This document shows positions 1-64,000 of a stretch of 64,000 nucleotides of DNA, piece by piece. The translations under genes were made by a program, and so were the position numbers. The notes beneath the pieces were generated by a model. The model did no database searches. It saw only the letters and a program-made list of their open reading frames with translations, and was not told the DNA's origin. Source of the stretch: an uncultured virus (IMG/VR IMGVR_UViG_3300045253_000007) (Duplodnaviria > Heunggongvirae > Uroviricota > Caudoviricetes). The stretch is from IMG/VR virus record IMGVR_UViG_3300045253_000007; one strand, written 5' to 3'. Positions within the stretch are counted from its first letter, which is position 1, and every line of letters starts with the position of its first letter.

Positions 1-320
1 TCGATGACCTAAAGGGTTCTGTTCACGAGTCTTTGGAATCTTCCAAGGAAACTGTTCAGAAGGCTGTAGAGTCCGTCGAGGCTCGCGTCAAGGAAGTTAG
101 CGAAGCATTCGACACTAAGGCTTCTGAGTTGGAAAAGTCTTTGACTGAACTCAGCGAAAAGTTTGACAGCATTAGGACAGAGCGCGAGGAAGTAACCAAG
201 CGTCTAGAAGTTCTAGAAAAGTCCACTGCTATTAAGAAGTCCGGTGAGGTTGAGGCCGCACCGGAGACAAAGGTTCAGAAGGGAATTTGGGGAGGCGCAC
301 TTTTCTCTAGAGAAGACTAA
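1..320 (+). CDS. C-terminal part of scaffolding protein / prohead protease-scaffold fusion (5'-truncated)
   Basis: Frame open from window start; charged coiled-coil sequence ending GIWGGALF, directly upstream of the capsid gene. Confidence 0.7.
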   Translation, partial: DDLKGSVHESLESSKETVQKAVESVEARVKEVSEAFDTKASELEKSLTELSEKFDSIRTEREEVTKRLEVLEKSTAIKKSGEVEAAPETKVQKGIWGGALFSRED

Positions 321-383
321 TTCTCTAACCAATCCAATACTTTATATGAATAACATGATTTTCCAATACGAAACACACGTTTC

Positions 384-399
384 TTTCACAGGGGGTGAA
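384..399 (+). promoter_or_regulatory. RBS element TTTCACAGGGGGTGAA (capsid gene)
   Basis: SD-like GGGGGTG; identical 16-mer at 8985-9000. Confidence 0.75.
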
Positions 400-407
400 A
401 CAAAATA

Positions 408-1445
408 ATGAGCGATAATAGTCTAATCGAAAAGGTAGTCACTACCGTAGGAGTTGCCAATGGCAACACTCCGGGTCAGGGTGGTCTTACCTACGCACAG
501 GCAGACAAGTTCCTTGATTACGCTTTCGACGCAACAGTTCTAGGTTCCCTAGTACGAATCCGTCGTATGCGCGCAGTTGAGGAAGAAATCGACATCATTG
601 CAGTAGGTTCCCGACTAACCGTTGGTGCTACCGAAGCAGTTGATACCGGTGCCAACGTCGGCCCGACATTTGCGAAGTTGTCTATTACTACAAAGAAGTA
701 CCGTCTAGACTGGGAACTTTCCAGCGAATCCCTAGAGGATAATATCGAGGGTCAGGACCTAGAGGACCACATTGCACGCCTAATGGCTACGCAGTTGGGT
801 AACGACCTAGAGGACTTTGCAATCAACGGTGACACCAGTACCAGCATTCCGGGTATTGATGTACAGGATGGTTGGAGGAAGCGTGCTGTTGCAGGAGGTC
901 ACGTCGTTGACCACGCAGGTTCAACCCTTAACAGGACTGCATTCAACAACGCACTAAAGGCAATGCCACGTAAGTACATGGCAAAGCGCGCAGGTCTTAA
1001 GTTCTTCACGGGTACTAACGCAATTCAGGATTACATCTTCTCCTTGCAGCAGATGGAGAACGGATTCGTTAACCCTTACGACTTGGCACAGGCTGCACGT
1101 AACCAGCCAGTTCGTACAGAGGGACCAGCAGGCTTCATTACAGGTAATGCCTTCGGTGTTCCTGTACAGGAAGTTCCGCTATTCCTAGAGGACCGTGATG
1201 GTGATTACGATACTGACTCTGGCACTTCTGGTGTCCAGTTGCCAAGTACCAACATCAACCACACCGACCTTTGGTTGACATTCCCAGAGAACCTAATCTG
1301 GGGTGTTAAGCGAGACATCAAGATTTACCGCGAGTTCAAGAACAAGAAGGATACTATCGAGTACACAGTCTACACCCGTCAGGGAACGCAGATTGAGAAC
1401 CTTGATGCATTCGTTGTTGTCAAGAACGTCAAGATTTCTGCATAA
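408..1445 (+). CDS. major capsid protein (HK97-fold)
   Basis: 345 aa; ELSSESLEDNIEG...LGNDLEDFAINGD motif typical of phage MCPs; followed by a terminator. Confidence 0.9.
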   Translation: MSDNSLIEKVVTTVGVANGNTPGQGGLTYAQADKFLDYAFDATVLGSLVRIRRMRAVEEEIDIIAVGSRLTVGATEAVDTGANVGPTFAKLSITTKKYRLDWELSSESLEDNIEGQDLEDHIARLMATQLGNDLEDFAINGDTSTSIPGIDVQDGWRKRAVAGGHVVDHAGSTLNRTAFNNALKAMPRKYMAKRAGLKFFTGTNAIQDYIFSLQQMENGFVNPYDLAQAARNQPVRTEGPAGFITGNAFGVPVQEVPLFLEDRDGDYDTDSGTSGVQLPSTNINHTDLWLTFPENLIWGVKRDIKIYREFKNKKDTIEYTVYTRQGTQIENLDAFVVVKNVKISA

Positions 1446-1464
1446 GATATCTCAGGTTTATCAC

Positions 1465-1492
1465 GGACAGCCGCCCTTCGGGGCGGCTGTTC
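1465..1492 (+). terminator. intrinsic terminator hairpin
   Basis: GGACAGCCGCCC-TTCG-GGGCGGCTGTTC after the MCP stop; no U-tract. Confidence 0.8.
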
Positions 1493-1519
1493 GCATTATC
1501 AGACATGATATGCTATACT
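1491..1519 (+). promoter_or_regulatory. sigma70-type promoter
   Basis: TCGCAT-17-TATACT with extended -10 TG. Confidence 0.6.
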
Positions 1520-1544
1520 CCTAATATGTACACGACAGAAAGAA

Positions 1545-1994
1545 GTGCAAACAATGGATTTTAAGAGACTTAATGTTGATGAACTAAAGGACCTAGCAGA
1601 GTTCTATGTCATCGACGTAACGGCTGTCAATGAAGAGAAGCCGACAAAGAAGGAACTGCTTACAGCAATCGCAACGGCAGAAGACCCTATTACTGATGAG
1701 GATTACGAAGCATTCAAGGCTGACCGTGAAAAGCCGGTAGAGAATGTAGACCTCGATGAAGATTCTGTGGACGCTCAGGATGGTCCAGCAGAACCAGCAG
1801 TAGAGGTAGATAGAAGCAACTGGGTATTGGTCAAGTTTATTGGTAAGAATCCAAGACTTGATGTTCTAGGCTACACGTTCCTAGGCCGTCACCCGTTCCA
1901 GTCTGTCCCACCAGAGGTTGCTGAGCACCTTATCCTTCATCGTGAAGGTTTCCGCTTGGCTTTGCCCAGCGAACTAACTGACTACTACAACTAA
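1545..1994 (+). CDS. hypothetical head-region protein
   Basis: 149 aa, acidic; N-terminal helix-extension-helix-like motif (ELKDLA...TKKELL). Confidence 0.7.
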   Translation: MQTMDFKRLNVDELKDLAEFYVIDVTAVNEEKPTKKELLTAIATAEDPITDEDYEAFKADREKPVENVDLDEDSVDAQDGPAEPAVEVDRSNWVLVKFIGKNPRLDVLGYTFLGRHPFQSVPPEVAEHLILHREGFRLALPSELTDYYN

Positions 1995-1996
1995 TT

Positions 1997-2025
1997 TTGC
2001 AATATAACTGTTAAACGGCTATAAT
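1997..2025 (+). promoter_or_regulatory. sigma70-type promoter, leaderless ATG at 2032
   Basis: TTGCAA-17-TATAAT, 6 nt to ATG. Confidence 0.75.
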
Positions 2026-2711: not shown

Positions 2712-2908
2712 CAGAAAATAATGTAGAGTTGGCTCAGGCGCGCGTTAGCGTTTCAGGAGTCTTAGAGAAGTTTGACGGAGAGGGAACCAACCCCACTAAC
2801 CTAGTAGAAAGAATTCATATCGTAGATGATGAAATTGTCAAGGTTGAATTCTTCGACGCCGGTATAAAGACCGGTGAACAAATTGTTGAAGAAGGAGGTA
2901 CAATTTAA
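2708..2908 (+). CDS. hypothetical protein
   Basis: 66 aa, ATGA and TAATG coupling to neighbours. Confidence 0.6.
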   Translation: MTENNVELAQARVSVSGVLEKFDGEGTNPTNLVERIHIVDDEIVKVEFFDAGIKTGEQIVEEGGTI

Positions 2909-3288
2909 TGGCAATAACAGACGCAGGTAGAAATCACCTAGTACAGTCTGCTATCGGTGCCGGTGTTACCGCATTCAACAATGCTAACAGTTACATTGGC
3001 GTTGGAGATTCCACCACCGCTTATGCCGCAGGTCAGACAGACCTACAGGCATCAACTAACAAGTTGCGTAAGGCGATGGACGCGACCTATCCATCTGGTG
3101 GTTCTAACGTTATCACGTTCAGGTCCACCTTTGGTACATCTGACGCAAACTATGCTTGGCAGGAGTGGGGTTGCTTTAACGCTTCTTCCGCTGGTACAAT
3201 GCTTAACCGCAAGGTAGAGTCTTTGGGAACAAAGACTTCTGCACAGACTTGGCAGTTCACCGTAGTTTTGACATTTACTACCGCCTAA
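2908..3288 (+). CDS. putative minor structural (fibre-base) protein
   Basis: IGVGDST...ANYAWQEWGCFN...MLNRKV pattern seen in phage structural proteins; SD GGAGG. Confidence 0.7.
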   Translation: MAITDAGRNHLVQSAIGAGVTAFNNANSYIGVGDSTTAYAAGQTDLQASTNKLRKAMDATYPSGGSNVITFRSTFGTSDANYAWQEWGCFNASSAGTMLNRKVESLGTKTSAQTWQFTVVLTFTTA

Positions 3289-26318: not shown

Positions 26319-26321
26319 GAC

Positions 26322-26350: not shown

Positions 26351-26373
26351 TACAACAACAAAGAAAGAGAAAT

Positions 26374-27945: not shown

Positions 27946-27967
27946 AATATAGAGGGGACTGTCGGTA

Positions 27968-28240: not shown

Positions 28241-28247
28241 TTAACTC

Positions 28248-41029: not shown

Positions 41030-41123
41030 GGAACTGAATATTTTCGAAATCAGTTTCATCATGTACCCAACCAACCCTCACTGTATTGTTACAGGAGTTA
41101 GCATGAGGTTAGCAGATGACTGA
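41016..41123 (+). CDS. 35-aa mini-ORF
   Basis: MRVIKELNIFEISFIMYPTNPHC...; fills the gap and overlaps both neighbours. Confidence 0.4.
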   Translation: MRVIKELNIFEISFIMYPTNPHCIVTGVSMRLADD

Positions 41124-41463: not shown

Positions 41464-41498
41464 TGCAGAAATACCTAGCAAGAGAGAATAGTTACTAA

Positions 41499-42290: not shown

Positions 42291-42335
42291 GTGAAACAAT
42301 CAAATACCTTCTGTGATTCGGGGGTGAGAAGGTAA

Positions 42336-42635
42336 ATGATTGGTAATGAATTTATATGCGCCCGTCCCGGTTGTGGTAACAAGTCTTTTAAGACAACTCA
42401 TAATCAAAAATACTGCACGAATGAATGTTGCAGGATTGAGACAAATCGTAAGATTATGGAGAAATACCACGAACGAGTGGCAATTAAGCGCGGTAAGAAG
42501 CGAGAATGCAAGACGTGTTCAACCCCTTTGTCCAGATATAATGAAAACGAAGATTGCGCACCGTGCCAGACGCGCAAGCGCAAAGAGAACTTGGGAGAGG
42601 CAGCAGCCCTCGTCGGTTCGGTAAATTGGCTGTAA
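42336..42635 (+). CDS. Cys-rich zinc-finger protein
   Basis: CARPGC...YCTNEC...CKTC...CAPC. Confidence 0.7.
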   Translation: MIGNEFICARPGCGNKSFKTTHNQKYCTNECCRIETNRKIMEKYHERVAIKRGKKRECKTCSTPLSRYNENEDCAPCQTRKRKENLGEAAALVGSVNWL

Positions 42636-42653
42636 TCGTGATATAATGGTTAC

Positions 42654-43229
42654 ATGGGTTTCGCAGATTTAACTAAGCGCAAGGCGGGTAGAGTTATTGG
42701 AATTGACTGTTCCACATTCTCACTCGCCTACGCCATTTTTGATGACAACAAGCCAGTAGCGTGTGGAGAAGTCCAATTCAACGGTAGTGATATATATGAA
42801 AGACTCAATGACGCAAGGCGCAAGACACAGGCTCTCGTGGACAACGGAATCCTTGTTGGTGACCACATCGGCATGGAGGCTGCTATCGTGGCGAAATCAG
42901 GTGCTCAGGTAGCCATTAAACTAGCCTATGTATACGGCGCGGTACTGGGTGTGCTCATGCAGAATAAGATGAATGTAGAAACCGTAGCGCCCATCACATG
43001 GCAGACGTATATCGGCAACGGTAACTTGAAGACAGATGAGAAGAATCAAATGCGTATAGATTTCCCAGACCACAAGGATTCGTGGTATCAGAACGAGGGT
43101 AGGAAGAGACGTAAGCAACGCACCCTAGATTTTGCTAAGACCTTCTTCACCATTGCTAGCGACTCAGACAACGTAGGTGACGCTGTTGGTATTGCGTACT
43201 ACACGAGTGAAGCACTTACCCGTCGATGA
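42654..43229 (+). CDS. ruvC: RuvC-like resolvase
   Basis: IGIDCS, ME, DNVGDAVGIA; leaderless start. Confidence 0.8.
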   Translation: MGFADLTKRKAGRVIGIDCSTFSLAYAIFDDNKPVACGEVQFNGSDIYERLNDARRKTQALVDNGILVGDHIGMEAAIVAKSGAQVAIKLAYVYGAVLGVLMQNKMNVETVAPITWQTYIGNGNLKTDEKNQMRIDFPDHKDSWYQNEGRKRRKQRTLDFAKTFFTIASDSDNVGDAVGIAYYTSEALTRR

Positions 43230-43372
43230 GCCAGAAATTATATGAGAGCGAACGCTGGATGCGCTTGAAGTATCTGAGGCAGCGCCTCAGTGTAGAAGAG
43301 ATTGCAGAAATCTGCAACGTGAAGACCATGACAATCTACAGGGCCATTACAAAATTTAAGTTGAAAAGATGA
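43226..43372 (+). CDS. small HTH protein (not in ORF track)
   Basis: 48 aa ...LSVEEIAEICNVKTMTIYR; ATGA overlaps on both sides. Confidence 0.75.
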   Translation: MSQKLYESERWMRLKYLRQRLSVEEIAEICNVKTMTIYRAITKFKLKR

Positions 43373-44082
43373 AGTACAACATAATCAGTTTGAACGACGA
43401 CCGCAAAGCATACTTTGATGTGCTGCGACAGATTCTAGGTGATGGTGAAATAGATATCCCAGCCGTGAATGCCACCGAGGTCAACCTCCATGAAGAACTG
43501 GAAAACAGAGGTATCGAACATCACGGTCACATCTGGGGTAATCCCAAGGCTGGCGAGTTGGGTGTCTGGTTATCAAATTACGATTGCTGGTTTACGGCAG
43601 CCGGTATGGACGAACCCCTCATAGTCTTTGAGGATGATGCAATCGTTGACACATTTTTCTGGGAAAAGTTATATGACGTATACAAGGAACTACCAGACGA
43701 TTGGGACTTTGTAGCCTTGTGGGTACCAGAGAACCAACACCTAGATTTCAGATATGAAACTGTCTATGAAAATGGCATACCGCGCATCAATAGGACCAGA
43801 GGCGATTGGGAAACATCCCAATACGACATTGGTGGCAGGTATGCCGCACTTGTGTATCAGGGGTACGGTATGGTATCATTGATGTACTCACCGAAGGGTG
43901 CGCAGAAACTTATTCAGTTGACCAAGGAGTACGGTATAACCGGCCCGGTAGACTGTTGGATTTATGAACAAGCCCACATGGGTAATCTAAATGGGTATGC
44001 GCCACGTCCAGAACAAGCAAGCATTGTTTACTATGACTGGAAAGCAGAATCCCACGTACAACTTACAGAAAGAATTCAATGA
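43369..44082 (+). CDS. glycosyltransferase family 25-like
   Basis: IISL...R, GELG..LS, VFEDDA, Y.P.GA.KL, PVD. Confidence 0.8.
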   Translation: MKYNIISLNDDRKAYFDVLRQILGDGEIDIPAVNATEVNLHEELENRGIEHHGHIWGNPKAGELGVWLSNYDCWFTAAGMDEPLIVFEDDAIVDTFFWEKLYDVYKELPDDWDFVALWVPENQHLDFRYETVYENGIPRINRTRGDWETSQYDIGGRYAALVYQGYGMVSLMYSPKGAQKLIQLTKEYGITGPVDCWIYEQAHMGNLNGYAPRPEQASIVYYDWKAESHVQLTERIQ

Positions 44083-44315
44083 CCGGCAGACTAGTTTACG
44101 AAGTTAGACTTCGTAAGTCTAAGCGCAAGAAGCAGCCTTGGCGCTGGGACGTGAGTTATCTATTAACTACGGACCCAGAGTTTCCCGGTGTGGAAACCGG
44201 TAGAAGTCATATAGGCAGTAACTTTGGCTACACCAGATTTAAGTGGCAAGCCAAGAAGAAGATTGCTGATAAACTGATTAGCAATCCTTATCAGAAAGTA
44301 TTTACAGAACGATGA
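44079..44315 (+). CDS. hypothetical basic protein
   Basis: 78 aa, coupled to neighbours. Confidence 0.55.
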   Translation: MTGRLVYEVRLRKSKRKKQPWRWDVSYLLTTDPEFPGVETGRSHIGSNFGYTRFKWQAKKKIADKLISNPYQKVFTER

Positions 44316-45211
44316 AGGTATTAGTAACAGGAGCACAGGGTTTTATCGGCCAATATGTGGTTGAGGAACTTGCTAGGCGAGGATACACGCCGGTAGCATT
44401 TGACAGATACGACAAGGGTGCTCGTACACCGGGAGCAGAGTTCTTCCTAGGTGATATCACAGATGACGTTGCGGTAACCGAGGCGGTAGCCCACGTAGAC
44501 GGATTCATCCACCTTGCTGGTGTTCTAGGTACTCAGGAAACAATCAAGAACCCCAACCCAGCAGCGTTCGTAAACATTCAGGGCGGTCTTAACGTCTTCA
44601 AGGCTGCTGCTCAGTACAACGTACCGGGCGTAAACATCGCGGTAGGCAATCACTGGATGAACAACACTTACTCCATTACGAAGTCAACCATGGAGCGTTT
44701 TGTTGCCATGTTCAATACCGAGTCCGGTACGAAGATTAACATTGTTCGTCCGACCAACTGCTTTGGTCCACGACAGGTTTCCTTCCCGCCGTACGGTCCA
44801 AGCAAGGTAAAGAAGATTACGCCAGCGTTCATCAACGCTGCTATTCGTAATCTTCCAATCGGTATCTACGGCGACGGTAATCAGGTTTCTGACATGATTT
44901 ACGTTGAAGACGTAGCCAAGACGCTAGTCACCGCCATGGAGCATGCTGCTGACGGCAAGGTCTATGATAAGGCGTTTGAGGTTGGGTACGGCGAACCAAT
45001 TACGGTTAACGAGGTCGCTCAGACAGTTATCAAGGTCGCTGGTTCCACCAGCACGCTAGAGCATTCTCCTATGCGTCCGGGTGAAGAGGTTGGCGGTATC
45101 GTTTTGGCTGACCCATCAACACTTGCTCCGTTAGGCATCTTCAAGAAGGATTTTGTTACTCTTGAAGACGGTCTTTCTCGCGCAATCGAATACTACAGGA
45201 AGTCCTTGTGA
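44312..45211 (+). CDS. NAD-dependent sugar epimerase/dehydratase
   Basis: TGAQGFIG, HLAG, YSITK (YxxxK), DMIYVED. Confidence 0.9.
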   Translation: MKVLVTGAQGFIGQYVVEELARRGYTPVAFDRYDKGARTPGAEFFLGDITDDVAVTEAVAHVDGFIHLAGVLGTQETIKNPNPAAFVNIQGGLNVFKAAAQYNVPGVNIAVGNHWMNNTYSITKSTMERFVAMFNTESGTKINIVRPTNCFGPRQVSFPPYGPSKVKKITPAFINAAIRNLPIGIYGDGNQVSDMIYVEDVAKTLVTAMEHAADGKVYDKAFEVGYGEPITVNEVAQTVIKVAGSTSTLEHSPMRPGEEVGGIVLADPSTLAPLGIFKKDFVTLEDGLSRAIEYYRKSL

Positions 45212-46050
45212 TAAACGGCCACAAGGTTGTAGTATTCACACCTTGGGGTCGTGAACTTACTGCATCTATACTCTTTGAGTATTTGAAGAGGGACCACGCC
45301 GCAGGCGTCGTAGACGAGTGGCACCTGTGGTTGAACACAGACGACGACCAAGTGAGAGACGTTGAGTATGGCCTTAATCTAGAAGAAGACAACGACTGGA
45401 TTAAGACTTTCAGTCGCCCAGCAGGGCCGGTACTTCATCCAAAGCAGATGAACACCGGTAGGTTTTACGTGTACACGCAAGAACCTGAAACAATTTACGT
45501 CCGCATGGATGATGATATCGTCTATATAGAAAAGAATGCTATCGCCAGACTCGCAGAACATCGTCTAGATAATAAGTATCCTTTCGTTGTGTTTCCAATC
45601 ATTTGGAACAACGCTGTGTGCTCGCACTACCTACAACAGATGGAGGCAATGCCTTCGTGGTGGGGCAAGGTTGGTAACCACTGCATGGACCCGGTAGGAT
45701 GGGCAGACGCAGATTTTGCAGTCAATATTCACCATCATCTACTAAATATGATTGCTATGGATAGAGTAGAAGACCTATTCCTACATCACAGCATTCAACT
45801 GCCGCTAGCGCAGCAGTTCAGCGTATCATCATTTGCACAAATTGGAAGCGAGTACAAAGCCGTTGACGGTATTCTTGGTGGTGAAGAGGAAGGTTGGCAC
45901 ACTATTACTATGCCTTGGGAAACCAAGAGGGCAAACATGATTGTGCCTAACTCATTCATAAGCCATTTTTCATTCTACCACCAGCGTAATCATCTTCTTA
46001 AGAATACTGATATCTTGGACCAGTACCGCGACATTTCCCAGAGTCTTTAA
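45208..46050 (+). CDS. GT-A-fold glycosyltransferase-like protein
   Basis: VFTPWGR, YVRMDDDIVYI DxD motif. Confidence 0.65.
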   Translation: MINGHKVVVFTPWGRELTASILFEYLKRDHAAGVVDEWHLWLNTDDDQVRDVEYGLNLEEDNDWIKTFSRPAGPVLHPKQMNTGRFYVYTQEPETIYVRMDDDIVYIEKNAIARLAEHRLDNKYPFVVFPIIWNNAVCSHYLQQMEAMPSWWGKVGNHCMDPVGWADADFAVNIHHHLLNMIAMDRVEDLFLHHSIQLPLAQQFSVSSFAQIGSEYKAVDGILGGEEEGWHTITMPWETKRANMIVPNSFISHFSFYHQRNHLLKNTDILDQYRDISQSL

Positions 46051-46760
46051 TGTTCACACCGAGGACCAATATGACTAGTTACATGCATAGAATCTGGATG
46101 GGTGGCGAGATGCCTGAGCGCTTCCAGCAGTACGGAGCGCTTTGGCAAGAACTCAATCCCAATTACAGGTTGAAGGACTGGGGCGAAGAAGAAATCATGG
46201 ACTCTCCATGGATTAACGTTAAGGTTCTTCAAGACCTCTACAGCAAGTCTTTACAACCGGGCGCAGATATGGTAGCCTATTACACACATGTTGCTGATGT
46301 AGTAGATTACGAATTGGTCTATTCGATGGGTGGCTGGTATTTCAATACAGACTTGAAACCATTAAAGCCGCTGAACACGCTAGCCTTCAATCGTGAACGC
46401 GCTGCATTTGCAATGGAGGATGACGTGCATGCCGTGAATATGGCAATGTACGCTCCAAGAGAAAATCCTGTGTTTGCAAAAATCATCGAGTTACTACCGG
46501 TAAGATACTTTGGAATGCCCGGAGCATTCATGAACGCCACGACTGGCGTACAACTAATCATGCAGGCTCTATCACAGCAACCTTGGGAAGTTCATTTATT
46601 TCCTAGAAATGTTTGGAACCCAATCCATTGGAGTGAATTCAATTATGGAACGGTCCCAGATGTGGACCGAGAGTATCCCGTGGAAACCGTGGCAGTACAC
46701 GAATGGCTGCACAGGACAAACCAACGAGGACAGAGAGTTCTAGAAAATGAAAACATTTAA
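46050..46760 (+). CDS. glycosyltransferase family 32 (OCH1-like)
   Basis: HRIWMG, WQELNP, AD...GGWYFNTD, ATTG. Confidence 0.8.
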   Translation: MFTPRTNMTSYMHRIWMGGEMPERFQQYGALWQELNPNYRLKDWGEEEIMDSPWINVKVLQDLYSKSLQPGADMVAYYTHVADVVDYELVYSMGGWYFNTDLKPLKPLNTLAFNRERAAFAMEDDVHAVNMAMYAPRENPVFAKIIELLPVRYFGMPGAFMNATTGVQLIMQALSQQPWEVHLFPRNVWNPIHWSEFNYGTVPDVDREYPVETVAVHEWLHRTNQRGQRVLENENI

Positions 46761-46929
46761 TGTAGAGTACGAATTGCCAAACAAAAGGGCAATCGTCAAA
46801 GGTGCGTATTCTGAGTTGTGTATTGACGACAAGATTATCTTGGTCGATAGTGCAGAAATAGAATACAATGCCGTGGTTGAAACCAGAATTGGTGGCGGCG
46901 CGGTAGTGAGAGTTACGGGCTTTAGGTGA
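46747..46929 (+). CDS. hypothetical protein
   Basis: 60 aa, coupled to neighbours. Confidence 0.5.
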   Translation: MKTFNVEYELPNKRAIVKGAYSELCIDDKIILVDSAEIEYNAVVETRIGGGAVVRVTGFR

Positions 46930-47177
46930 CGGATACCATCGCATATCAGGATATTGAATCCTTGCTAGCGTGGGACCCAAGCATAAGGTACGAGTACGAC
47001 AATCACGGCAACATCAGCGTGTTCGATTCGCAGTATGGCATCTTCCTTGAAGTAGGTATAGGTGACACCATCCAAAGAATAGAAGACGGGTTTGCTGTGA
47101 TTCGACAAGGCAGGACAAGTGGTTTGATTACTACCGCCACTATCATGCCTAAGATTACCGGACACATCAGAGGATAG
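46926..47177 (+). CDS. hypothetical protein
   Basis: 83 aa, coupled to neighbours. Confidence 0.55.
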   Translation: MTDTIAYQDIESLLAWDPSIRYEYDNHGNISVFDSQYGIFLEVGIGDTIQRIEDGFAVIRQGRTSGLITTATIMPKITGHIRG

Positions 47178-47178
47178 T

Positions 47179-47775
47179 ATGCAGATTGTAGCATTGAGCG
47201 GGTACGCTCGCGCAGGCAAGGACGAAGCCGCGAGCGTGCTCGTCTCAGATTTTGGTTTCAAGCAAGTAGCATTTGCTGATAAGTTGCGTGAAATGCTTTA
47301 TCAGTTGAATCCTGTAGTTGGCATCGGGTCAATCTATTGTCAAGGCGACTTTGATAAGACCCATACTTGGAACAATATATATGTTCAAGATATTATTAAT
47401 AAGTATGGTTGGGGAGGGTACAAAGAAACACATTTTGGACCTGAGGTTCGCAGACTCCTACAACGCCTTGGAACTGAGGCCGGTAGACTAACCCTTTGGG
47501 ATTCTATCTGGATTGATGCAGCCTTAGCAGGTCTGGAAGATGATGCTAAGGTAGTAGTTTCGGACGCACGATTCTTCAATGAGTTCGATGCTGTACGTGA
47601 ACGCGGTGGAGAGATTTGGCGTATTGACCGAGAAGGTGTCGGACCAGCCAATGACCATCCAAGCGAGACAGAGGCAATAGCCTATCAGCACTTCGGTGCA
47701 TACTTCAAAAATGATGGTACTCTGGAAGAGTATAAACAACAAATTAGGGATTATGCCAATGCGCGTGGGATTTGA
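47179..47775 (+). CDS. deoxynucleoside monophosphate kinase
   Basis: SGYARAGKD, FADKL, LQRLGTE, SDARF.NE, HPSE. Confidence 0.9.
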   Translation: MQIVALSGYARAGKDEAASVLVSDFGFKQVAFADKLREMLYQLNPVVGIGSIYCQGDFDKTHTWNNIYVQDIINKYGWGGYKETHFGPEVRRLLQRLGTEAGRLTLWDSIWIDAALAGLEDDAKVVVSDARFFNEFDAVRERGGEIWRIDREGVGPANDHPSETEAIAYQHFGAYFKNDGTLEEYKQQIRDYANARGI

Positions 47776-48349
47776 CTTAGACGGAGTGGGTTACGTATTC
47801 GGTGCGTCGGTAAGGAATTATCTTACCTCCATCGGTATCAACGTGGCCGAGGCTACCGACGACTTTTGTACCCACTGGGACTTTTATGAATTTTGGGGTA
47901 TGACTCGTGAAGAGTTTGCCAAGTATTGTGATGCTGGTGTAGATGCAGGATTCGTCTTCGCACCGGGAGATGGTTTAACACGACCGGGATTCTTTGACGC
48001 TATCAAGACTGTCAAGATGATGGGACACGACGTTATCATTGCAACGCACAGATTTCAAGGCAGTCCCGGTAAGGCTCAGGAGAATACCTATAGGTGGCTA
48101 GAGCCGGTATTGATGTATGTGGATGAAGTTCACTTCACAACAGATGGTGATAAGACTGGCTTCAATACAGATATGTTCGTTGAGGATTCCAAGCCAAACT
48201 ATGACCTTTTAGTCGCAAGCGGTCAAGATTCATACCTCATCAACAGACCTTGGAATGCTCCATACAATGACGACCGTCAGCGTATTGGAGATATCTATGA
48301 CTATGTGAGGGCGGTCGAACAACGCGCAAAGCGCGTTTCTGTGGTATAA
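47753..48349 (+). CDS. HAD-family 5'(3')-nucleotidase-like protein
   Basis: GFDLDGV, FVEDS, RPWN. Confidence 0.8.
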   Translation: MPMRVGFDLDGVGYVFGASVRNYLTSIGINVAEATDDFCTHWDFYEFWGMTREEFAKYCDAGVDAGFVFAPGDGLTRPGFFDAIKTVKMMGHDVIIATHRFQGSPGKAQENTYRWLEPVLMYVDEVHFTTDGDKTGFNTDMFVEDSKPNYDLLVASGQDSYLINRPWNAPYNDDRQRIGDIYDYVRAVEQRAKRVSVV

Positions 48350-49108: not shown

Positions 49109-50936
49109 AGACTTTTACCAAGACCTGTTCAACAGACTCTCTGGTGAAGAGTTCGAAGAGATGCCGGTAGATGTTTTTGAATTTACTACCTCTGAGAACT
49201 ACTGTGGTCTGAAAGAACTATCAGAGTATCAATATGCTCTGGTACGAAACATGTCTCAAATCTACAAGAGGGAAACCCTTGTAGCACTCTATGGTGGAGA
49301 TGAAGCAAAGGCTGAAAGACGCTGGCGCGAAACGTGCCGTGAAATCATCATGCAACTTGGTAAGGGTTCCGGTAAGGACTTTACATCTACCGTCGCGGTA
49401 TCATATGTGGTATATCTCCTACTTTGCCTAAAGTCACCAGCAGAATACTACGGTAAGCCCAAGGGTGACTCCATTGATATTATCAATATTGCTATCAACT
49501 CAGACCAAGCCAACAGAGTTTTCTTCAAGAACTTCGTAGAGCGCATCAGGAACAACCCATGGTTCGAAGGTAGATATGAAGAAAAGCAAGGTAGTATCGA
49601 GTTCGACAAGAACGTGACCGTTTATTCTGGTCACTCAGAACGAGAAGCATTTGAGGGATACAACACCCTGCTTGTAATTCTCGATGAGATTTCTGGTTTC
49701 GCATTGACCTCCAACACCGGACATCAGAACGCCAAAACTGCTCCCGCAATCTATGACATGTATAAGGGTTCTGTCACCAGTCGTTTTGCTGAGTTCGGTA
49801 AGTTGGTATTGCTTTCATTCCCTCGTTTCAAGGACGACTTCATCCAGCAGAAGTACAAGGAAGTTATTGCAGAAATTGAAACGATTGAACGCTCAGCAAC
49901 TCTAAAGGTTGACCCAGAACTACCGGACGGTCAAGAGGGTAATGAGTTTGAGATTAAGTGGGAAGAGGATGAAATCATCCGTTATGCTTACCCATACACC
50001 TTTGCATTGCGCAGACCGTCTTGGGAAGTTAATCCGACCAAGAATCTACAAACAGATTATGCGCTAGACTTCTATCGCAACCCCGGAGATGCGCTGGGAC
50101 GCTTCGCTTGCATGCCGTCCAACCTAGAAGATGGTTACTTCAAGAGAATGGATAAGGTCGAGGCAGCATTTTGTCGCATGAATGGTGTAGACGCCGAAGG
50201 CGTTTTTCATCCTAACTTCCAGCCTAAGGATGACGTTAAGTATTTCATGCACGTTGACCTTGCCCAGAAGCACGACAAGTGCGCGGTAGCAATGGGACAC
50301 GTTGACAAGTGGATACAGTATGATGTAGGGTCAAGTGGATACGTAGAGTACCTACCGCTCGTAGTGATTGATGCGCTGCGTTGGTGGACACCTACCAAAG
50401 ATAAGTCAGTTGATTTCAAGGAAGTTGTAGAATACATCAAGGCTGTTCGACGTAGAGGATTCAACCTAAAGTTGGTCACCTTCGACCGTTGGAACTCTCA
50501 CGACACCATGATGGAACTAGAACGTAATGGTATTAAGACAGAAGTTCTCTCTGTTGCTAAGAAGCATTACGACGACTTCCTGATGACTACTTATGACGAC
50601 AGGCTTCTTGGTCCAGCAGAACAAGCACTTATTGATGAACTTGGCGAACTTCGTCTAGTAAAGGATAAGGTAGACCACCCTCGCAAGGGTAACAAGGATT
50701 TGTCTGACGCGGTGTGCGGTGCCATTTTCAACAGCGTCTCTCACACGCCTAAAGAAGAAAACTTGGAAGCAGATGCTCTCACTCTAGAAGACCTTAAAGA
50801 GATTGTCGATGACGACGAGAAGCAGGTTCTAAAATGGGACCGTCCGGGAGTTATCGTAGTTCCTAAGAAAACACTTAAAGAAGAAGCACCACAGAACATT
50901 CAAGACATGATAGACGATTTCATGCGAGTTCTTTGA
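49101..50936 (+). CDS. terL: terminase large subunit
   Basis: GKGSGKD Walker A, ILDE Walker B, HVDLA, FDRWNS, KVDHP...KDLSDA. Confidence 0.9.
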   Translation: MAKDFYQDLFNRLSGEEFEEMPVDVFEFTTSENYCGLKELSEYQYALVRNMSQIYKRETLVALYGGDEAKAERRWRETCREIIMQLGKGSGKDFTSTVAVSYVVYLLLCLKSPAEYYGKPKGDSIDIINIAINSDQANRVFFKNFVERIRNNPWFEGRYEEKQGSIEFDKNVTVYSGHSEREAFEGYNTLLVILDEISGFALTSNTGHQNAKTAPAIYDMYKGSVTSRFAEFGKLVLLSFPRFKDDFIQQKYKEVIAEIETIERSATLKVDPELPDGQEGNEFEIKWEEDEIIRYAYPYTFALRRPSWEVNPTKNLQTDYALDFYRNPGDALGRFACMPSNLEDGYFKRMDKVEAAFCRMNGVDAEGVFHPNFQPKDDVKYFMHVDLAQKHDKCAVAMGHVDKWIQYDVGSSGYVEYLPLVVIDALRWWTPTKDKSVDFKEVVEYIKAVRRRGFNLKLVTFDRWNSHDTMMELERNGIKTEVLSVAKKHYDDFLMTTYDDRLLGPAEQALIDELGELRLVKDKVDHPRKGNKDLSDAVCGAIFNSVSHTPKEENLEADALTLEDLKEIVDDDEKQVLKWDRPGVIVVPKKTLKEEAPQNIQDMIDDFMRVL

Positions 50937-50961
50937 CGTAGCGCGCCGGTAGTGGTAGAAT
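50933..50961 (+). promoter_or_regulatory. sigma70-type promoter
   Basis: TTGACG-17-TAGAAT; spacer contains CCGGTAG. Confidence 0.75.
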
Positions 50962-57370: not shown

Positions 57371-57442
57371 GGTCCGTTACGTCACCGGTAGACTATTTCC
57401 TTTACACGGAGAGGGCAGTAGGTTCGACTCCTACACGGACTA
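57371..57442 (+). tRNA. trnV: tRNA-Val(TAC)
   Basis: Cloverleaf; loop TTTACAC. Confidence 0.85.
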
Positions 57443-57445
57443 CGC

Positions 57446-57608: not shown

Positions 57609-57637
57609 TTGACACAGCCGGTAGGCTGTGTTAGTAT
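57609..57637 (+). promoter_or_regulatory. promoter with palindromic spacer
   Basis: TTGACA-17-TAGTAT; ACACAGCC-GGTA-GGCTGTGT. Confidence 0.8.
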
Positions 57638-57914: not shown

Positions 57915-57948
57915 CTGGGATGATGCATCGTCCTAATATTTGATTGTT

Positions 57949-58020
57949 GGTGGGTTCGTCTAGGGGCTCAGGACACCGGACTTTAATCCGGTAACGTTGG
58001 TTCGAATCCAACATCCGGCA
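57949..58020 (+). tRNA. atypical tRNA-Glu-type body with a 6-nt anticodon loop
   Basis: Glu-type D arm TTCGTCTAGGGGCTCAGGACA; CCGGA-CTTTAA-TCCGG. Confidence 0.6.
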
Positions 58021-58031
58021 ATAATCATTAT

Positions 58032-59620: not shown

Positions 59621-59694
59621 GGTAGTTGTAACAAGGTGAGTTAACAACAAGCGTTCAGACAATCGGCTTGGCTCATTTATTTGGAAGGAAAACA

Positions 59695-60513
59695 ATGTCT
59701 ATTACATTTTTAGGCACAGATTTTTCTGTGCCTATTTCTATGCAAGAACTGTATTCTGATAATACACCTAGAATCAAGATGGAAAATTTTGAGACGGTGT
59801 GTCAGAAGGCAGATACCGTCGTGGTTAAGCAAGGCTCTCTAGCAGAGTTTGTTAACGCGATGTTCTTGGTTGATTCTATTGCCTTAAAGGGCGGTAAGAT
59901 TAGGAAGTTGATTCTTCCTTTCCTACCGGGTGCCCGACAGGATAGAGTTAATATAGACGGTGATGTTCTATTCACCGCTTCCTCAGTGGCGCAAATGATT
60001 AACTTGCGCGGCTTTGAGCAGGTCATTTCTGTTGACCCCCACTCCCGAGTAATGCCGGGATTCATCTACAACTTTGTCGAGTTTCCTCTCGCCAAGGTTT
60101 ACGAGAAGTTGCCCAAGTCTTATGACGGAGTTATCGCTCCTGACAAGGGTGCTAAGGCTCGTGCCCGAACCGCTGCTCGTGTTCTGAATAAAACAGTCAC
60201 GTACGCAGACAAGGTGCGCGACCCAGCGACCGGTAGTCTATCAGGCTTTGCTGTCAACGTTGATGAAGACAAGCACTATATTGTCATTGATGATATAGCA
60301 GACGGTGGAGGCACGTTCCTTGGACTAGGAGAAAAGATTGCTGAACAAGGTGCCACGGCTGACCTTTACGTCACGCACGCTATCTTCTCAAAGGGAACAG
60401 ACGACTTGAAAAAGATTTACAAGAACATCTACACAACAAATTCAATTAATAATGGACAGCGACCACTGGACGTAATCCGTCTGGACGTTGTGACAGAAAT
60501 GGAGAAATACTAA
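59695..60513 (+). CDS. PRPP-synthetase-like pyrophosphokinase (Adps-like)
   Basis: PFLPGARQDR, DPHS, APDKGA, IDDIADGGGTF, VTH. Confidence 0.88.
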   Translation: MSITFLGTDFSVPISMQELYSDNTPRIKMENFETVCQKADTVVVKQGSLAEFVNAMFLVDSIALKGGKIRKLILPFLPGARQDRVNIDGDVLFTASSVAQMINLRGFEQVISVDPHSRVMPGFIYNFVEFPLAKVYEKLPKSYDGVIAPDKGAKARARTAARVLNKTVTYADKVRDPATGSLSGFAVNVDEDKHYIVIDDIADGGGTFLGLGEKIAEQGATADLYVTHAIFSKGTDDLKKIYKNIYTTNSINNGQRPLDVIRLDVVTEMEKY

Positions 60514-62027
60514 TGTTTACGCTTAACCCGATTTTTCAGACGGACGGATACAAGTTGGACCACCGCCGTCAGTACCCGAAGGGTACACAGTACGTTTACT
60601 CAAACTGGACCGCTCGCGGTAGCCGAGTTCCCGGTATCAACAAGGTCACGTTCTTCGGCCTACAGTATGCGCTAAAGAAGTTGAACGATGAGTTTAAGGC
60701 TAACTTCTTCGCACGCGATGTAGACGAGGTTTGCAATGAGTATCAGGCAATGCTTGATTCTTTTCTAGGGCCGAACGATATCGGCACCGACCACATCAGG
60801 GCTTTGCATACTCTTGGCTACTTGCCTCTAGAGGTTAAGGCACTTCCCGAGGGTACCCGCGTTCCTCTCCGCGTTCCGATGCTTACCATCGAAAACACGC
60901 ACCCGGAGTTCTTCTGGCTTACCAATTACTTTGAGACAATCTTGTCTGCTGAGTTGTGGATGCCGATGACGAGCGCAACCGTTGCTTCTCACATTAGGCA
61001 AGACCTAAACGAGTGGGCATTGAAGACGACCGGTAGCACCGAGGGCGTTGGTTTCAGCGGCCACGATTTCAGCATGCGAGGCATGGCCGGTGCTGAGGCT
61101 GCTATCGCTAGTGCCATGGGTCACCTTGTTGCCTTCACTGGCACCGAGACGGTTCCTGTTCTACAGGCTATTCCGTATTACTACCCCAACACAGGGTTCT
61201 TGGCCGGTACAGTTCCAGCAACAGAGCACAGCGTTATGTGTGCAGGCGGTAAGGAAGACGAGACGGAGACATTCCAGCGTTTGCTAGATTTGTACCCGAC
61301 TCAGATTCTAAGTGTCGTTTCTGACACATGGGATTTCTGGAATGTTCTTACCAACATTCTTCCTAGCCTAAAGGACCAGATTCTTGCTCGCGGTGCAAAC
61401 GGCGGTAAGTTGGTTGTACGTCCCGACAGCGGTGACCCTGCTGACATTATCTGTGGTACTAATGCTCAGGCAACTGATAATAACGGATGGGATTCTGTCG
61501 AAAAGGGTGCTATTCAGGTTCTCTGGGATGAATTCGGCGGTACCATCAACGAGCAGGGCTACAAGGTTCTTAACCCAGCCGTAGGACTCATCTACGGTGA
61601 CGCCATGAACCGTGGACGCATCAACAATATTAACGAGCGTCTTGCAGCCAAGGGCTTCGCCAGCACAAACTGGGTCGCCGGTATTGGTAGTTTCAATTAC
61701 CAATACCAGACTCGTGACACGTTCGGCTTTGCTATGAAGGCAACCAACGTTGTTATCGAAGATGAAGAAAAGGCTATCTTCAAGGACCCGAAGACAGACA
61801 ATGGTTTGAAGAAGTCCCTAAAGGGTCGTATCGGAGTCTTCACGCTAAAGAACGATGAGGACAACAGTCTTGTCAAGGGCAGCAAGGGCGACCTAGTTGC
61901 ATTTGATGAACTCCGTAAGGATAGTAGCGCTTATGAAAATAGTCTGCTAGAGCCTGTGTTTAGGGATGGTGTCTTCATCAAGGAATGGACCTTTGATGAG
62001 GTTCGTGCAAACAGCGGACTCGTTTAA
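60513..62027 (+). CDS. nicotinamide phosphoribosyltransferase-like protein (Namat-like)
   Basis: TDGYKLDH, HDFSMRG, PATEHSVM, SVVSDTWD, VRPDSGDP, KDPKTD. Confidence 0.92.
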   Translation: MFTLNPIFQTDGYKLDHRRQYPKGTQYVYSNWTARGSRVPGINKVTFFGLQYALKKLNDEFKANFFARDVDEVCNEYQAMLDSFLGPNDIGTDHIRALHTLGYLPLEVKALPEGTRVPLRVPMLTIENTHPEFFWLTNYFETILSAELWMPMTSATVASHIRQDLNEWALKTTGSTEGVGFSGHDFSMRGMAGAEAAIASAMGHLVAFTGTETVPVLQAIPYYYPNTGFLAGTVPATEHSVMCAGGKEDETETFQRLLDLYPTQILSVVSDTWDFWNVLTNILPSLKDQILARGANGGKLVVRPDSGDPADIICGTNAQATDNNGWDSVEKGAIQVLWDEFGGTINEQGYKVLNPAVGLIYGDAMNRGRINNINERLAAKGFASTNWVAGIGSFNYQYQTRDTFGFAMKATNVVIEDEEKAIFKDPKTDNGLKKSLKGRIGVFTLKNDEDNSLVKGSKGDLVAFDELRKDSSAYENSLLEPVFRDGVFIKEWTFDEVRANSGLV

Positions 62028-62959
62028 TGTACGAACCCATGTTGGCTCGCTCAGCCGAAGAGTCTGACCTTTCCACAAAGGACTGGACCGGCTGGTCGCT
62101 TGAACCCAAGCACGACGGCATGCGAGCAATCATTGAAATTACCGATGCGGGAGTTGAAATATACTCCCGCACCGGTAAGTCACAAAAGGGTAAATGCCCT
62201 CACCTAGAACACGCACTGTCCTTTCTGCCTCACGGTACCGTGCTAGACGGCGAGATTGCCATGGTAGTTAATAGTATAACTGTCAATGGTCAAGATGTAC
62301 CGGTGGTAGATTTTAATAAGACCATGCGCGTTATGGGCAGTGGTGTAGAAAAGGCAGTATTGCGCCAGCAGGAGTTGGGCGAGGTATCATTCCTTGTATT
62401 CGACATCATGCAATACTGTGGTGAAGATGTTACCACGTATTCTCAGAAGTACCGCAACGAGTTGGTTGACATGCTGGACGCAAACTACATGGTTCACAAC
62501 CCAAAGTACGAGACTGATTTTGCTGAGGTTTATGCAGAACTTATTGCGAATGGTGTCGAGGGCGCTATTCTCAAAAACCTTAACGCAATGCAATACGTCG
62601 CCGGTAGGTCCAAGAATTGGCTAAAGGTCAAGTCTGCTAAGACCTTTGATGTAGTAGTCATGGGGTATACACCCGGTCAAGGTAAGTACGAAGGTAACCT
62701 AGGTGCTATCGAATTTGGTGCTTATCTTCCAAATGGTGTTTTGAAATATGTTGGTCGTTGTTCGGGCATGACCGATGAGGAACGTGGCTACTGGTTTAAG
62801 AAACTGTCTACCGGCGTTCATCCACATGGTGTCATCGAAGTTAAGGCTAATGAGATGGTTGGTTCTGGTGAGTATCGAACGCCTAGGCATCCTCAGTACG
62901 TAACTAAGCGCATAGACAAGAACCCAGAAGACTGTAAAATGGACCAGTTCAAGGCTTGA
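62027..62959 (+). CDS. ATP-dependent DNA ligase
   Basis: EPKHDGMR, LDGE, FDI, EGAILK, WLKVK, RHP. Confidence 0.92.
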   Translation: MYEPMLARSAEESDLSTKDWTGWSLEPKHDGMRAIIEITDAGVEIYSRTGKSQKGKCPHLEHALSFLPHGTVLDGEIAMVVNSITVNGQDVPVVDFNKTMRVMGSGVEKAVLRQQELGEVSFLVFDIMQYCGEDVTTYSQKYRNELVDMLDANYMVHNPKYETDFAEVYAELIANGVEGAILKNLNAMQYVAGRSKNWLKVKSAKTFDVVVMGYTPGQGKYEGNLGAIEFGAYLPNGVLKYVGRCSGMTDEERGYWFKKLSTGVHPHGVIEVKANEMVGSGEYRTPRHPQYVTKRIDKNPEDCKMDQFKA

Positions 62960-62984
62960 CAAGCACTGTCCGATATGTTAGGGT
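62956..62984 (+). promoter_or_regulatory. sigma70-type promoter
   Basis: TTGACA-17-TAGGGT. Confidence 0.65.
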
Positions 62985-63012
62985 TGTGCTTCACACCAAC
63001 GAAAGGCATCAC

Positions 63013-63666
63013 ATGCGAAAGATTTTAAGCGCGGCGGTAGCGGTTCTTGTCATCCTTGGAGGATTCATCCTTGTTGCCCAGCACGCTCAGGCAAACAACA
63101 AACTAGCGGTATGCCACCCAGTAAACGGTAAGGGCGAACTAGGTAATGGTTGGGATTTGATTAGTCCTGATAAGGCATCGTCTCACATCAATGAGGCTTT
63201 GTACCCCAATGGTCATTACTGGAAGCACGAAGCCAAGGATGGACGCCATGACGAATATGCGGTTAACGGTAAGTGTGGCATGTTGCCCACGCCGACTCCT
63301 GACCCGATTCCCAGTATTAGGCCCAGTCCGTCTGTGACCCCAACGGTTACGCCTACACCAACAACGCCGGTAGACGTTATGGTAACCCCACAGTACCTAC
63401 ATCATGTTACGTGTATTCCAAAGTATAGTGATAACATGACAATTGTTCCCAACGTTGGATACACTGGCACCGTAAAGGACAATGGTGACTATGATGTCCT
63501 CACCTTTGTAGCCAAGCCGGGGTACATTTTGGATAATAACAGTAAGACCGAAGTCATCACTGTTAGGAAGATTGTACCTAGGTGCATCGCACCCAAGCCT
63601 ACAGTCAAGCATACGCCTATTAAGGTTAACTCTACACCGACAGCGCTACCCAATACGGGAGCCTGA
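63013..63666 (+). CDS. secreted Pro/Thr-rich protein ending in LPNTGA
   Basis: Signal peptide MRKILSAAV...AQA, PT linker, terminal LPxTG; SD GAAAGG. Confidence 0.75.
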   Translation: MRKILSAAVAVLVILGGFILVAQHAQANNKLAVCHPVNGKGELGNGWDLISPDKASSHINEALYPNGHYWKHEAKDGRHDEYAVNGKCGMLPTPTPDPIPSIRPSPSVTPTVTPTPTTPVDVMVTPQYLHHVTCIPKYSDNMTIVPNVGYTGTVKDNGDYDVLTFVAKPGYILDNNSKTEVITVRKIVPRCIAPKPTVKHTPIKVNSTPTALPNTGA

Positions 63667-63672
63667 AAGAAT

Positions 63673-63713
63673 CTACCGGCTGGGTTGACAAGACCCAGCC
63701 GGTAGTGTAGAGT
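63673..63713 (+). promoter_or_regulatory. promoter overlapped by a 13-bp inverted repeat
   Basis: CTACCGGCTGGGT-TGACAAG-ACCCAGCCGGTAG; TTGACA-17-TAGAGT. Confidence 0.8.
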
Positions 63714-63720
63714 TCTTCTT

Positions 63721-63900
63721 ATGGCCCAAGACTACTTCAAGTGTACTAGGTGCGGACGTATCAGGTCCGCAAAGTACATAACCAAGCACAAGGTTCGCGG
63801 GGTATGGAAAGACAGATGTATTGCTAAAAGTACCTGTGCTTCCATAGCAAAGAGAAATCGCAAGAAGAAACTTGACACAGCCTCACAACCTGTGGTATGA
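63721..63900 (+). CDS. 59-aa basic Cys-containing protein (not in ORF track)
   Basis: FKCTRCGR...C...C; leaderless. Confidence 0.6.
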   Translation: MAQDYFKCTRCGRIRSAKYITKHKVRGVWKDRCIAKSTCASIAKRNRKKKLDTASQPVV

Positions 63901-63901
63901 T
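63872..63901 (+). promoter_or_regulatory. promoter of tRNA-His
   Basis: TTGACA-18-TATGAT. Confidence 0.75.
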
Positions 63902-63919
63902 ATCTAAGTAACAAATCAT

Positions 63920-63996
63920 GGTGGCCGTGGCGAAACGGTTAACGCGCTAGACTGTGAATCTAGTCAATGAGGGTTCGAATCCCTTCGGTCACCCCA
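63920..63996 (+). tRNA. trnH: tRNA-His(GTG), G-1 and CCA encoded
   Basis: Cloverleaf; loop CTGTGAA. Confidence 0.93.
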
Positions 63997-64000
63997 TGCT

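Follow-up and report, generated by a model that had tools for sequence, protein, structure and literature searches.

A dispersed, strand-biased DNA word, SCGGTAG, overlaid on the genes of an uncultured siphophage

The 64,000 nt stretch of the uncultured virus IMGVR_UViG_3300045253_000007 analysed here (the window; all positions refer to it unless another genome is named) is scattered with the heptamer SCGGTAG (S, C or G), and the excess of this word is a DNA-level signal overlaid on the genes rather than a protein motif. There are 108 exact matches, of which 78 are dispersed along the + strand, the coding strand of every called gene, and 30 lie on the − strand. Dinucleotide-preserving shuffles of the window gave a mean of 9.63 matches on both strands (sd 3.59, largest 19), and the count of 108 was reached by none of the 100; from base composition, 3.2 + 3.5 copies per strand would be expected. 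A first-pass annotation, made from the letters alone, had estimated about 75 and 30 copies against roughly 6 predicted per strand, which was accurate, and its twelve example positions are all among the + strand matches. The tenfold excess that it proposed holds against the dinucleotide shuffle but shrinks to about 5-fold against a codon-aware null. Our favoured, still doubtful reading is that the DnaG-type primase encoded by the phage starts preferentially at the word.

The unit of the signal is (G)(S)CGGTA(G), with CGGTA as its core; the heptamer is a subset of this wider signal and does not stand as a strict unit. CGGTA is present 253 times on the + strand and 124 times on the − strand, against 59.9 predicted from composition, and it has the top score in a maximal-order Markov model of the window (253 vs 161). 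SCGGTA accounts for 177 copies on the + strand. The word is anchored at its 3′ end and its information declines towards the 5′ side at positions −1 and −2: position −2 favours G, and position −1 is rich in C and G and poor in T. On the + strand CGGTA is most often followed by G (93 copies), ahead of A (64), T (52) and C (44). No informative positions were found beyond the immediate flanks within 45 nt on either side. The most frequent 8-mers of the family are GCCGGTAG (22 copies), CGCGGTAG (17), CCCGGTAG (12) and GGCGGTAG (10). Overlap of + and − copies as a palindrome occurs in 2 and 5 cases only.

Called open reading frames (ORFs) number 71, all on the + strand and together covering 91 % of the window (our own greedy longest-ORF calls, made without a gene finder). 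The + copies fall in the frames SCG-GTA-G (46) and nSC-GGT-AG (26), with 6 counted outside called ORFs; one of these, at 47480, lies within an ORF dropped from the set. The annotation had argued from several reading frames, a tRNA D loop and promoter spacers that no protein motif is involved, and the two frames and the non-coding copies agree with this. The word belongs to the DNA because it is also found in non-coding DNA and, in the relative G002 introduced below, in genes of both orientations. The tRNA copy is real, at 57385–57391 (+) in the D-arm region of a tRNA-Val gene (57371–57443), as a single case only. A tRNA-like gene at 57948–58021, amid ordinary tRNA genes, is of undetermined identity, with a two-base anticodon call (‘tt’) by ARAGORN.

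When synonymous codons were shuffled within genes (N=300), the 78 + copies compared with a mean of 15.8 (sd 3.1, maximum 24) and the 30 − copies with 11.5 (sd 3.1, maximum 22). A shuffle preserving codon pairs (N=200, coding sequence only), a check proposed in the first-pass annotation, also left the excess standing, with 72 + copies vs 44.2 (sd 4.5) and none of 200 shuffles reaching the observed number. This null is very conservative because it retains most of the 5-mer signal by construction; CGGTA itself was at 235 vs 193.5, and on the − strand SCGGTAG was at 29 vs 21.5, with 4 of 200 shuffles reaching the observed count. GCG-GTA (40 vs 5.3 expected) and CCG-GTA (29 vs 4.5) are over-represented codon pairs, whereas GCG-GTT (5 vs 6.6) and CCG-GTT (1 vs 5.7) show no excess, and GGT is preceded by C and followed by A 145 times against 98 expected. 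When all k-mers were ranked against the synonymous shuffle, the word family came top for k=5, 6 and 7. Amino-acid contexts able to encode the heptamer use it in 44 of 100 cases in the aligned genes of the window and in 34 of 107 in those of G002. The pressure for the word is strong. As a separate observation, the arginine codon CGG is nearly absent from the window (9 of 834 arginine codons, 2 of the 9 followed by TA), even though the word makes CGG a common trinucleotide in both remaining frames.

Relatives were found with the DnaE-type DNA polymerase gene (35154–38492, +) as query; a near-identity search of a phage collection with the window gave no match. Three of them carry the word in quantity. 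A 32.9 kb IMG/VR contig (G001, equal to G003) that is 96.5–99.7 % identical to positions 18998–51862 has 38 + and 11 − copies, and none of the reversed word on either strand. G002, a 120.8 kb contig judged 94 % complete with a DnaE 70 % identical, has 104 and 47 (reversed word, 24 and 9). L051, a 17 kb metagenome contig with a DnaE 61 % identical, has 17 and 2, where 2.2 are expected. SCGGTAG is not enriched in BillNye, NootNoot and 14 other contigs whose DnaE is 50 % identical or less. In the plus-strand genes of G002 the synonymous shuffle gave 70 sense copies vs 12.7 and 25 antisense copies vs 11.7. A block of 19 minus-strand genes (8.1 kb) in the same genome has 8 copies on the genome-plus strand vs 1.4 and 7 on the genome-minus strand vs 1.6, and its non-coding DNA (19.5 kb) holds 18 + and 11 − copies. 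On these counts, which are small in the minus-strand block, the word prefers a strand of the genome over the sense strand of the genes.

Copies on the + strand are more evenly spaced than chance, and those on the − strand are not. On the + strand of the window the heptamer recurs every 805 nt on average and CGGTA every 246 nt. In G002 the coefficient of variation (CV) of + strand CGGTA gaps is 0.82, against a null of 1.00 (sd 0.05), a smaller value than for any other of the 237 pentamers that occur 150 times or more (median 1.06); in the window it is 0.90, rank 10 of 116. Pooled over the three genomes, + gaps of 25–50 nt are at 0.71 of expectation, gaps of 150–600 nt are in excess, and gaps above 1200 nt number 4 against 11.4 expected. 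Gaps on the − strand are close to exponential, with a CV of 1.08–1.20. The polarity of the word tracks the G-rich strand: the ratio of + to − copies is 32 : 19 in the first 30 kb of the window, where GC skew is near zero, and 46 : 11 from 30 to 64 kb, where skew is about +0.08. In five-kb bins of G002, + copies exceed − copies in 21 of 25 bins, fall below them in 3 and tie in 1; no clean strand switch was seen along these 25 bins.

Density is held between lineages while positions turn over, and single sites are weakly constrained. In 38.4 kb of codon-aligned genes at 61 % nucleotide identity there are 44 + sites in the window and 34 in G002, of which 11 are shared; one quarter of the window's aligned sites are thus kept, against 6.5 % of all heptamers, so that the conservation check suggested by the first-pass annotation came out in favour of the word. 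On the − strand, where the excess is weaker and spacing random, the two genomes have 14 and 6 sites in the same alignment and share none. Among 39 contexts permitting the word in both genomes, 11 use it in both, 9 in the window only, 2 in G002 only and 17 in neither; shared use stands at 11 vs 6.7 under independence (Fisher p 0.006). An 11 kb three-way alignment with L051 contains 13, 13 and 10 sites, with 6, 4 and 1 shared pairwise and a single heptamer kept in all three lineages, at 31863–31869 (+) in the helicase gene, codons TGG-ACC-GGT-AGR. Separately, the near-identical contig L004, compared over positions 25187–48529, is 99.7 % identical to the window over 4 kb (25187–29164) and then 96.2–96.6 % identical over 19 kb, a step that suggests recent recombination among close relatives.

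The exact heptamer seemed at first sight a clean clade-specific trait, being not enriched in relatives of the BillNye and NootNoot type, but this was abandoned when k-mers were ranked there against synonymous shuffles: related G+C-rich, one-strand words (GCCGGTR, GGCGGGT) stand at or near the top. NootNoot has GGCCGGT (20 vs a shuffle mean of 1.8, reverse complement 1) and CGGCCGG (15 vs 0.8), L053 has GGCCGGT (8 vs 1.0, reverse complement 0), L013 has CCGGTGG (8 vs 0.9, reverse complement 0), L056 has GCCGGTG (9 vs 1.7, reverse complement 0) and BillNye, whose ORF calls include many spurious minus-strand ORFs, has GGCGGGT (27 vs 6.4, reverse complement 1). Strand counts across NootNoot (L003), BillNye (L001/L002/L031), L013, L053 and L056 were 21 : 2 for GGCCGGT, 10 : 0 for CCCGGCA, 42 : 4 for GGCGGGT and 10 : 0 for GCCGGTG. 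The words of BillNye and of the window's clade are spread over frames and non-coding DNA. Only 2 of 72 word sites are shared by position with NootNoot. From these sequences, the word of the window may be an amplified, shifted version of a family trait.

An absence of function, with the word a by-product of codon-pair preference or of biased mutation or repair of, for example, the very-short-patch type, is highly improbable and is already largely refuted. It would draw on the fact that favoured codons make up the two commonest settings (glycine is encoded by GGT in 55 % of cases and valine by GTA in 32 %), on the related word of NootNoot-type relatives being confined mostly to one frame, and on word sites being no better conserved than other heptamers at 3 % divergence. 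It does not account for the spread of the word over two frames and into non-coding DNA and promoter spacers, for its copies antisense to genes, nor for an excess that outlasts the codon-pair-preserving shuffle, and even spacing on one strand is unexpected from mutation. All 15 single-base variants of CGGTA are mildly depleted to neutral, with depletion at every position and for transitions and transversions alike. TGGTA, the partner by transition, shows no depletion (ratios 1.07 and 1.09), and therefore no donor–acceptor pair of the patch-repair kind is present.

By its predicted genes the window is from an uncultured siphophage akin to Streptomyces phages of the Stanwilliamsviridae. PHROG and Pfam scans recovered siphovirus head, tail and tape-measure genes, together with glycosyltransferases, a terminase, 13 tRNA genes and NAD-salvage genes, and the DnaE protein is at best 52 % identical to those of BillNye, NootNoot and kin, which are Streptomyces phages of that family. 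A relative encodes a WhiB-like regulator and promoter-like TTGACA-17-TAGAGT/TAGAAT sites are present; both fit an actinobacterial host. The replication module consists of a DnaB-like helicase (31313–32572, +), a DnaG-type primase (32840–33967, +), a single-stranded DNA-binding protein (SSB) and the DnaE-type polymerase. The primase, the candidate reader of the word, matches phrog_47, with DNAG_N and Toprim_4 above cut-off. Its Zn_ribbon_DnaG match scores 19.4 bits, under the 24.9 cut-off, and the zinc-ribbon residues C44, H47, C66 and C71 are invariant in all six of the aligned relatives' sequences.

Under the primase reading, the word, kept at high, even density mainly on the + strand, would be a functional signal read on unwound DNA by a replication enzyme of the phage. 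The zinc-ribbon domain of the primase would recognize …GGTA on the lagging-strand template, primer synthesis would begin opposite the T, leaving the 3′ A (and G) uncopied, and the primer would extend into the G+C-rich 5′ bases and so be stable. Should forks move with transcription and GC skew, the + strand would serve as lagging-strand template. Speaking for this reading are the DNA-level excess, the even spacing and polarity of the + copies, the density held despite turnover, the 3′ anchoring of the word and the presence of a primase with invariant zinc-ribbon residues. Selection would have to write the word in, since chance would supply a recognition word of this length only about once per 9 kb on each strand, and would place it wherever it is tolerated, at synonymous sites, in promoter spacers and in hairpin loops. 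The different but related one-strand words of relatives fit a reader that evolves with the phage. One could then picture a co-evolving pair, with some hesitation: a strand-reading enzyme of the replisome, most simply the DnaG-type primase, and a 7–8 nt word needed every few hundred bases that drifts between lineages (GCCGGTR, GGCGGGT, SCGGTAG).

Several observations weigh against a primase start signal. A CGGTA every 246 nt is a density far above plausible priming need, and the − strand too has an excess, of some 2- to 2.6-fold. Word sites change as quickly as other heptamers at close range, with 25 of 29 kept in the contig 96.5–99.7 % identical to the window, compared with 83 % of all heptamers. 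An insertion or substitution in the primase zinc ribbon that would set all three word-rich lineages apart was looked for in the alignment and none was found, and the link between primase and word is drawn from sequence. The words of NootNoot and L053 may be codon-pair effects, since they lie nearly all in one frame (nnG-GCC-GGT, 18 of 21 and 7 of 8). Literature searches gave no precedent for a primase site at several-fold genome-wide excess. Unlike the window's word, the primase sites of T7, the best-studied case, are not notably enriched in the T7 genome, where the pentamers GGGTC, GTGTC and TGGTC occur 39, 43 and 79 times vs 37.8, 35.9 and 35.9 and rank 437, 321 and 24 of 1022. Priming also leaves unexplained the concentration in promoter spacers, at roughly ten times the genome average.

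Promoter-like sites, defined as matches to TTGACN-N16–18-TANNNT, number 23 on the + strand of the window and 41 in G002. The heptamer is in the spacer, 17 nt long in each case, of 4 of the 23 (at 26322, 50933, 57609 and 63685), and in that of 6 of the 41 in G002, where the average density of the genome predicts about 0.3–0.4; for CGGTA the figure in G002 is 8 of 41. The presence of the word in promoter spacers, as first noticed in the annotation, is thus confirmed. At TTGACA-17-TATACT (26322–26350, +) the word lies at 26332–26338 and its GGTA forms the loop of a perfect 7 bp hairpin (26327–26344), which could be the terminator of a long tail-gene operon overlapping the next promoter; the G002 counterpart (96272 in that genome) keeps word and hairpin (about 96278–96295) with both arms changed and the GGTA loop unchanged, as judged by eye. 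At TTGACG-17-TAGAAT (50933–50961, +) the word (50946–50952) is directly upstream of the −10 hexamer, and at TTGACA-17-TAGTAT (57609–57637, +) it forms the loop and closing pair (57618–57624) of an 8 bp hairpin (57612–57631). At 63685–63713 (+) the −35 hexamer is enclosed by a 13 bp inverted repeat (63673–63705) whose outer ends are one − copy (63673–63679) and one + copy (63699–63705). Several spacers have in common the layout CGGTAG-TG-TAGAGT. A hairpin as the general basis of the word was rejected, since at 65 of the 93 CGGTAG sites of the window and at 99 of the 132 of G002 no stem extends beyond the closing C : G pair, as chance predicts; stems of at least 7 bp occur at 2 and 3 such sites, respectively.

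For this concentration in spacers ‘free space’ alone is insufficient, and it is the main observation in favour of a double-strand DNA-binding protein, an abundant regulator of phage or host or a nucleoid-type protein, that would for example time early promoters or coat the DNA. The shared spacer layout and the inverted repeat with a copy at each end around a −35 hexamer point the same way, as does a conserved 170-aa protein (30265–30777, +), a candidate binder whose BillNye counterpart is annotated as a helix-turn-helix (HTH) DNA-binding protein and which itself has no Pfam match. Such a binding site is nonetheless quite unlikely as the explanation. More than 90 % of copies are intragenic with no promoter elements nearby, the flanks hold no further informative position over 45 nt, and neither strand polarity nor one-strand even spacing is expected for a binder of double-stranded DNA. 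Close inverted pairs show no clear excess (about 5 and 3 by eye, vs about 2.2 for each order), and the HTH-like protein is also encoded by relatives that lack the word. A second phage HTH protein, which the annotation had placed at 43226, is not confirmed, that position being the end of a RuvC-like gene.

A Chi-like signal, in which a one-orientation word is read by a helicase–nuclease of the host (AdnAB/RecBCD type) or the phage that enters at DNA ends, is unlikely, although parts of the evidence suit it. Recognition would turn degradation into recombination, to the benefit of recombination-dependent replication and of the survival of linear or concatemeric phage DNA. Chi is the sole documented class of dispersed, one-strand, over-represented 5–8-mers in phage genomes (PMC12315714), and GCCGGTAG matches the E. 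coli Chi given in that paper at 6 of 8 positions. The word has in common with Chi that it is rich in G and sits on frequent codons in two frames; its polarity runs along the G-rich strand, and its density is held despite the turnover of positions. Against this, the phage has its own recombination module (39214–43229, +), consisting of RecA/UvsX-like (39214–40224), resolvase (40402–40716), RecB/Cas4-family nuclease (41499–42290) and RuvC-like (42654–43229) genes and counting two resolvases, while Chi-rich phages, according to PMC12315714, are those that lack such a module. The sites are evenly spread with no clustering at ends, unlike those of LLS and MD8, and orientation bias is 2.2–2.6 : 1 over whole records (78 : 30 in the window, 104 : 47 in G002). 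No RecBCD/AddAB/AdnAB-type enzyme is among the genes of the window and none was found in G002. None of 151 sampled Actinomycetota genomes is enriched in the word, which is a weak test, as the host is not identified and may fall outside the sample; density peaked at about 0.36 per kb per strand (phage, 1.2), and relative to the reversed-word control the word reached about 1.6 at most, a rough figure in that the control is inflated by common codons at high GC. Seven of these genomes are unpublished and the result is unchanged without them; Streptomyces chromosomes were not picked by name. A search for the host by way of a relative's ribonucleotide reductase gave only contigs of metagenome-assembled genomes that share that gene alone and are without the word. 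Very unlikely, too, is that the word is a target for modification or strand-specific nicking of virion DNA, with the single-strand interruptions in the virion DNA of T5-like phages as a model. The word is asymmetric and strand-biased, the window has several HNH endonuclease genes, and a clade-specific block with an epimerase and glycosyltransferases adjoins a deoxynucleoside monophosphate (dNMP) kinase; yet neither mechanism accounts for enrichment and even spacing, and the 94 %-complete G002 has no N6/N4 methyltransferase (PF01555) or TGT/DpdA-type enzyme (PF01702), other methyltransferase families not having been searched. L051 is word-rich with no epimerase/glycosyltransferase block at the corresponding place, which counts against this block as a clade-specific reader.

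The block in question (43369–48349), located between the recombination genes and the terminase, encodes a GT25 glycosyltransferase, an NAD-dependent epimerase, two more glycosyltransferases, one of them with a DXD/TcdA–TcdB-type catalytic region, the dNMP kinase and an NT5C-like nucleotidase. Of these, G002 shares the epimerase and the latter two glycosyltransferases, none of which is in BillNye. A 126-aa protein of the head module (2908–3288) is the most conserved between the window and G002 (84 % identical) and has no counterpart in all of BillNye, 50 kb of NootNoot or 23 kb stretches of other relatives; it was set aside as a reader, as it appears by eye to be structural rather than a DNA binder. 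The adjacent genes at 27059–27496 and 27475–27945 both match phrog_10025 and one single G002 gene, which looks like a tandem duplication in the window's lineage. Genes for a ribose-phosphate pyrophosphokinase, a nicotinamide phosphoribosyltransferase and an ATP-dependent DNA ligase stand in a row at 59668–62959, and this NAD-salvage set has no counterpart in G002. Palindromes of six bases are strongly avoided relative to the synonymous shuffle (CTGCAG, 2 vs 24.2; CTTAAG, 6 vs 25.3), and two tetramers are likewise low (TCGA, 112 vs 194; AATT, 205 vs 303), a pattern that resembles restriction-site avoidance.

The word, not the genes, sets hundreds of synonymous sites as well as about a quarter of the strong promoter spacers and several hairpin loops, a pressure comparable to strong codon bias, and it marks out a clade of uncultured phages related to those of Streptomyces. 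If the primase reads it, the template preference of a replication enzyme can shape a whole genome, and the fork direction of uncultured phages would be readable from sequence alone. A co-evolving pair of the kind outlined above, if real, would be the first replication-priming (or other phage-encoded tracking) signal at Chi-like genomic excess. If a Chi-type nuclease is the reader, the word would be a candidate Chi word for actinobacteria, for which we know of none. In the literature searched, neither this word nor any polar word of this phage family is described, which is not proof of absence, and no description was found of the one-strand words of relatives (GGCCGGT, CCCGGCA, GGCGGGT, GCCGGTG).

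On its sequence properties the word joins the over-represented polar genomic words, and it is at most a candidate for the Chi family. KOPS and similar architecture-imparting words, read by FtsK-type translocases at chromosome segregation, are likewise over-represented oligomers whose orientation tracks one strand over long distances, but they are far more skewed than the word of the window, and no FtsK-type translocase is evident in the phage. The ops element shares the hexamer CGGTAG as its core, forms a small hairpin in single-stranded DNA and is read by RfaH on the non-template strand, which is also the strand of the genes on which the window's word mostly lies. Unlike ops, the word is not limited to a few operon starts but occurs hundreds of times, its flanks carry no ops-like extension, it is enriched in both orientations in the minus-strand genes of G002 (7 vs 1.6, 8 vs 1.4), and no NusG/RfaH-type protein (PF02357) was matched in G002. 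The Chi sites of phages LLS (23, 20 : 3), P1 (50) and MD8 (32 : 0), as reported in PMC12315714, are similarly short, G-rich and asymmetric, form the most over-represented oligomer, are biased to one strand and lie scattered through genes in several frames, beyond what codon usage explains; their bias is 7 : 1 or more where that of the window is 2–3 : 1, and their density is one per 1.9 kb against one per 0.8 kb on the + strand here. The sites of T7-type and DnaG-type primases are words read on a single-stranded template, and like these systems the phage of the window encodes a zinc-ribbon primase, whose gene adjoins that of the DnaB-like helicase. The T7 primase site, 5′-(G/T)2GTC-3′, and that of AtTwinkle, 5′-(G/C)GGA-3′, resemble the window's word in their length of 4–5 nt, their GG(T) and a decay of information on the 5′ side and, if the primase is the reader, in one or more uncopied 3′ bases.

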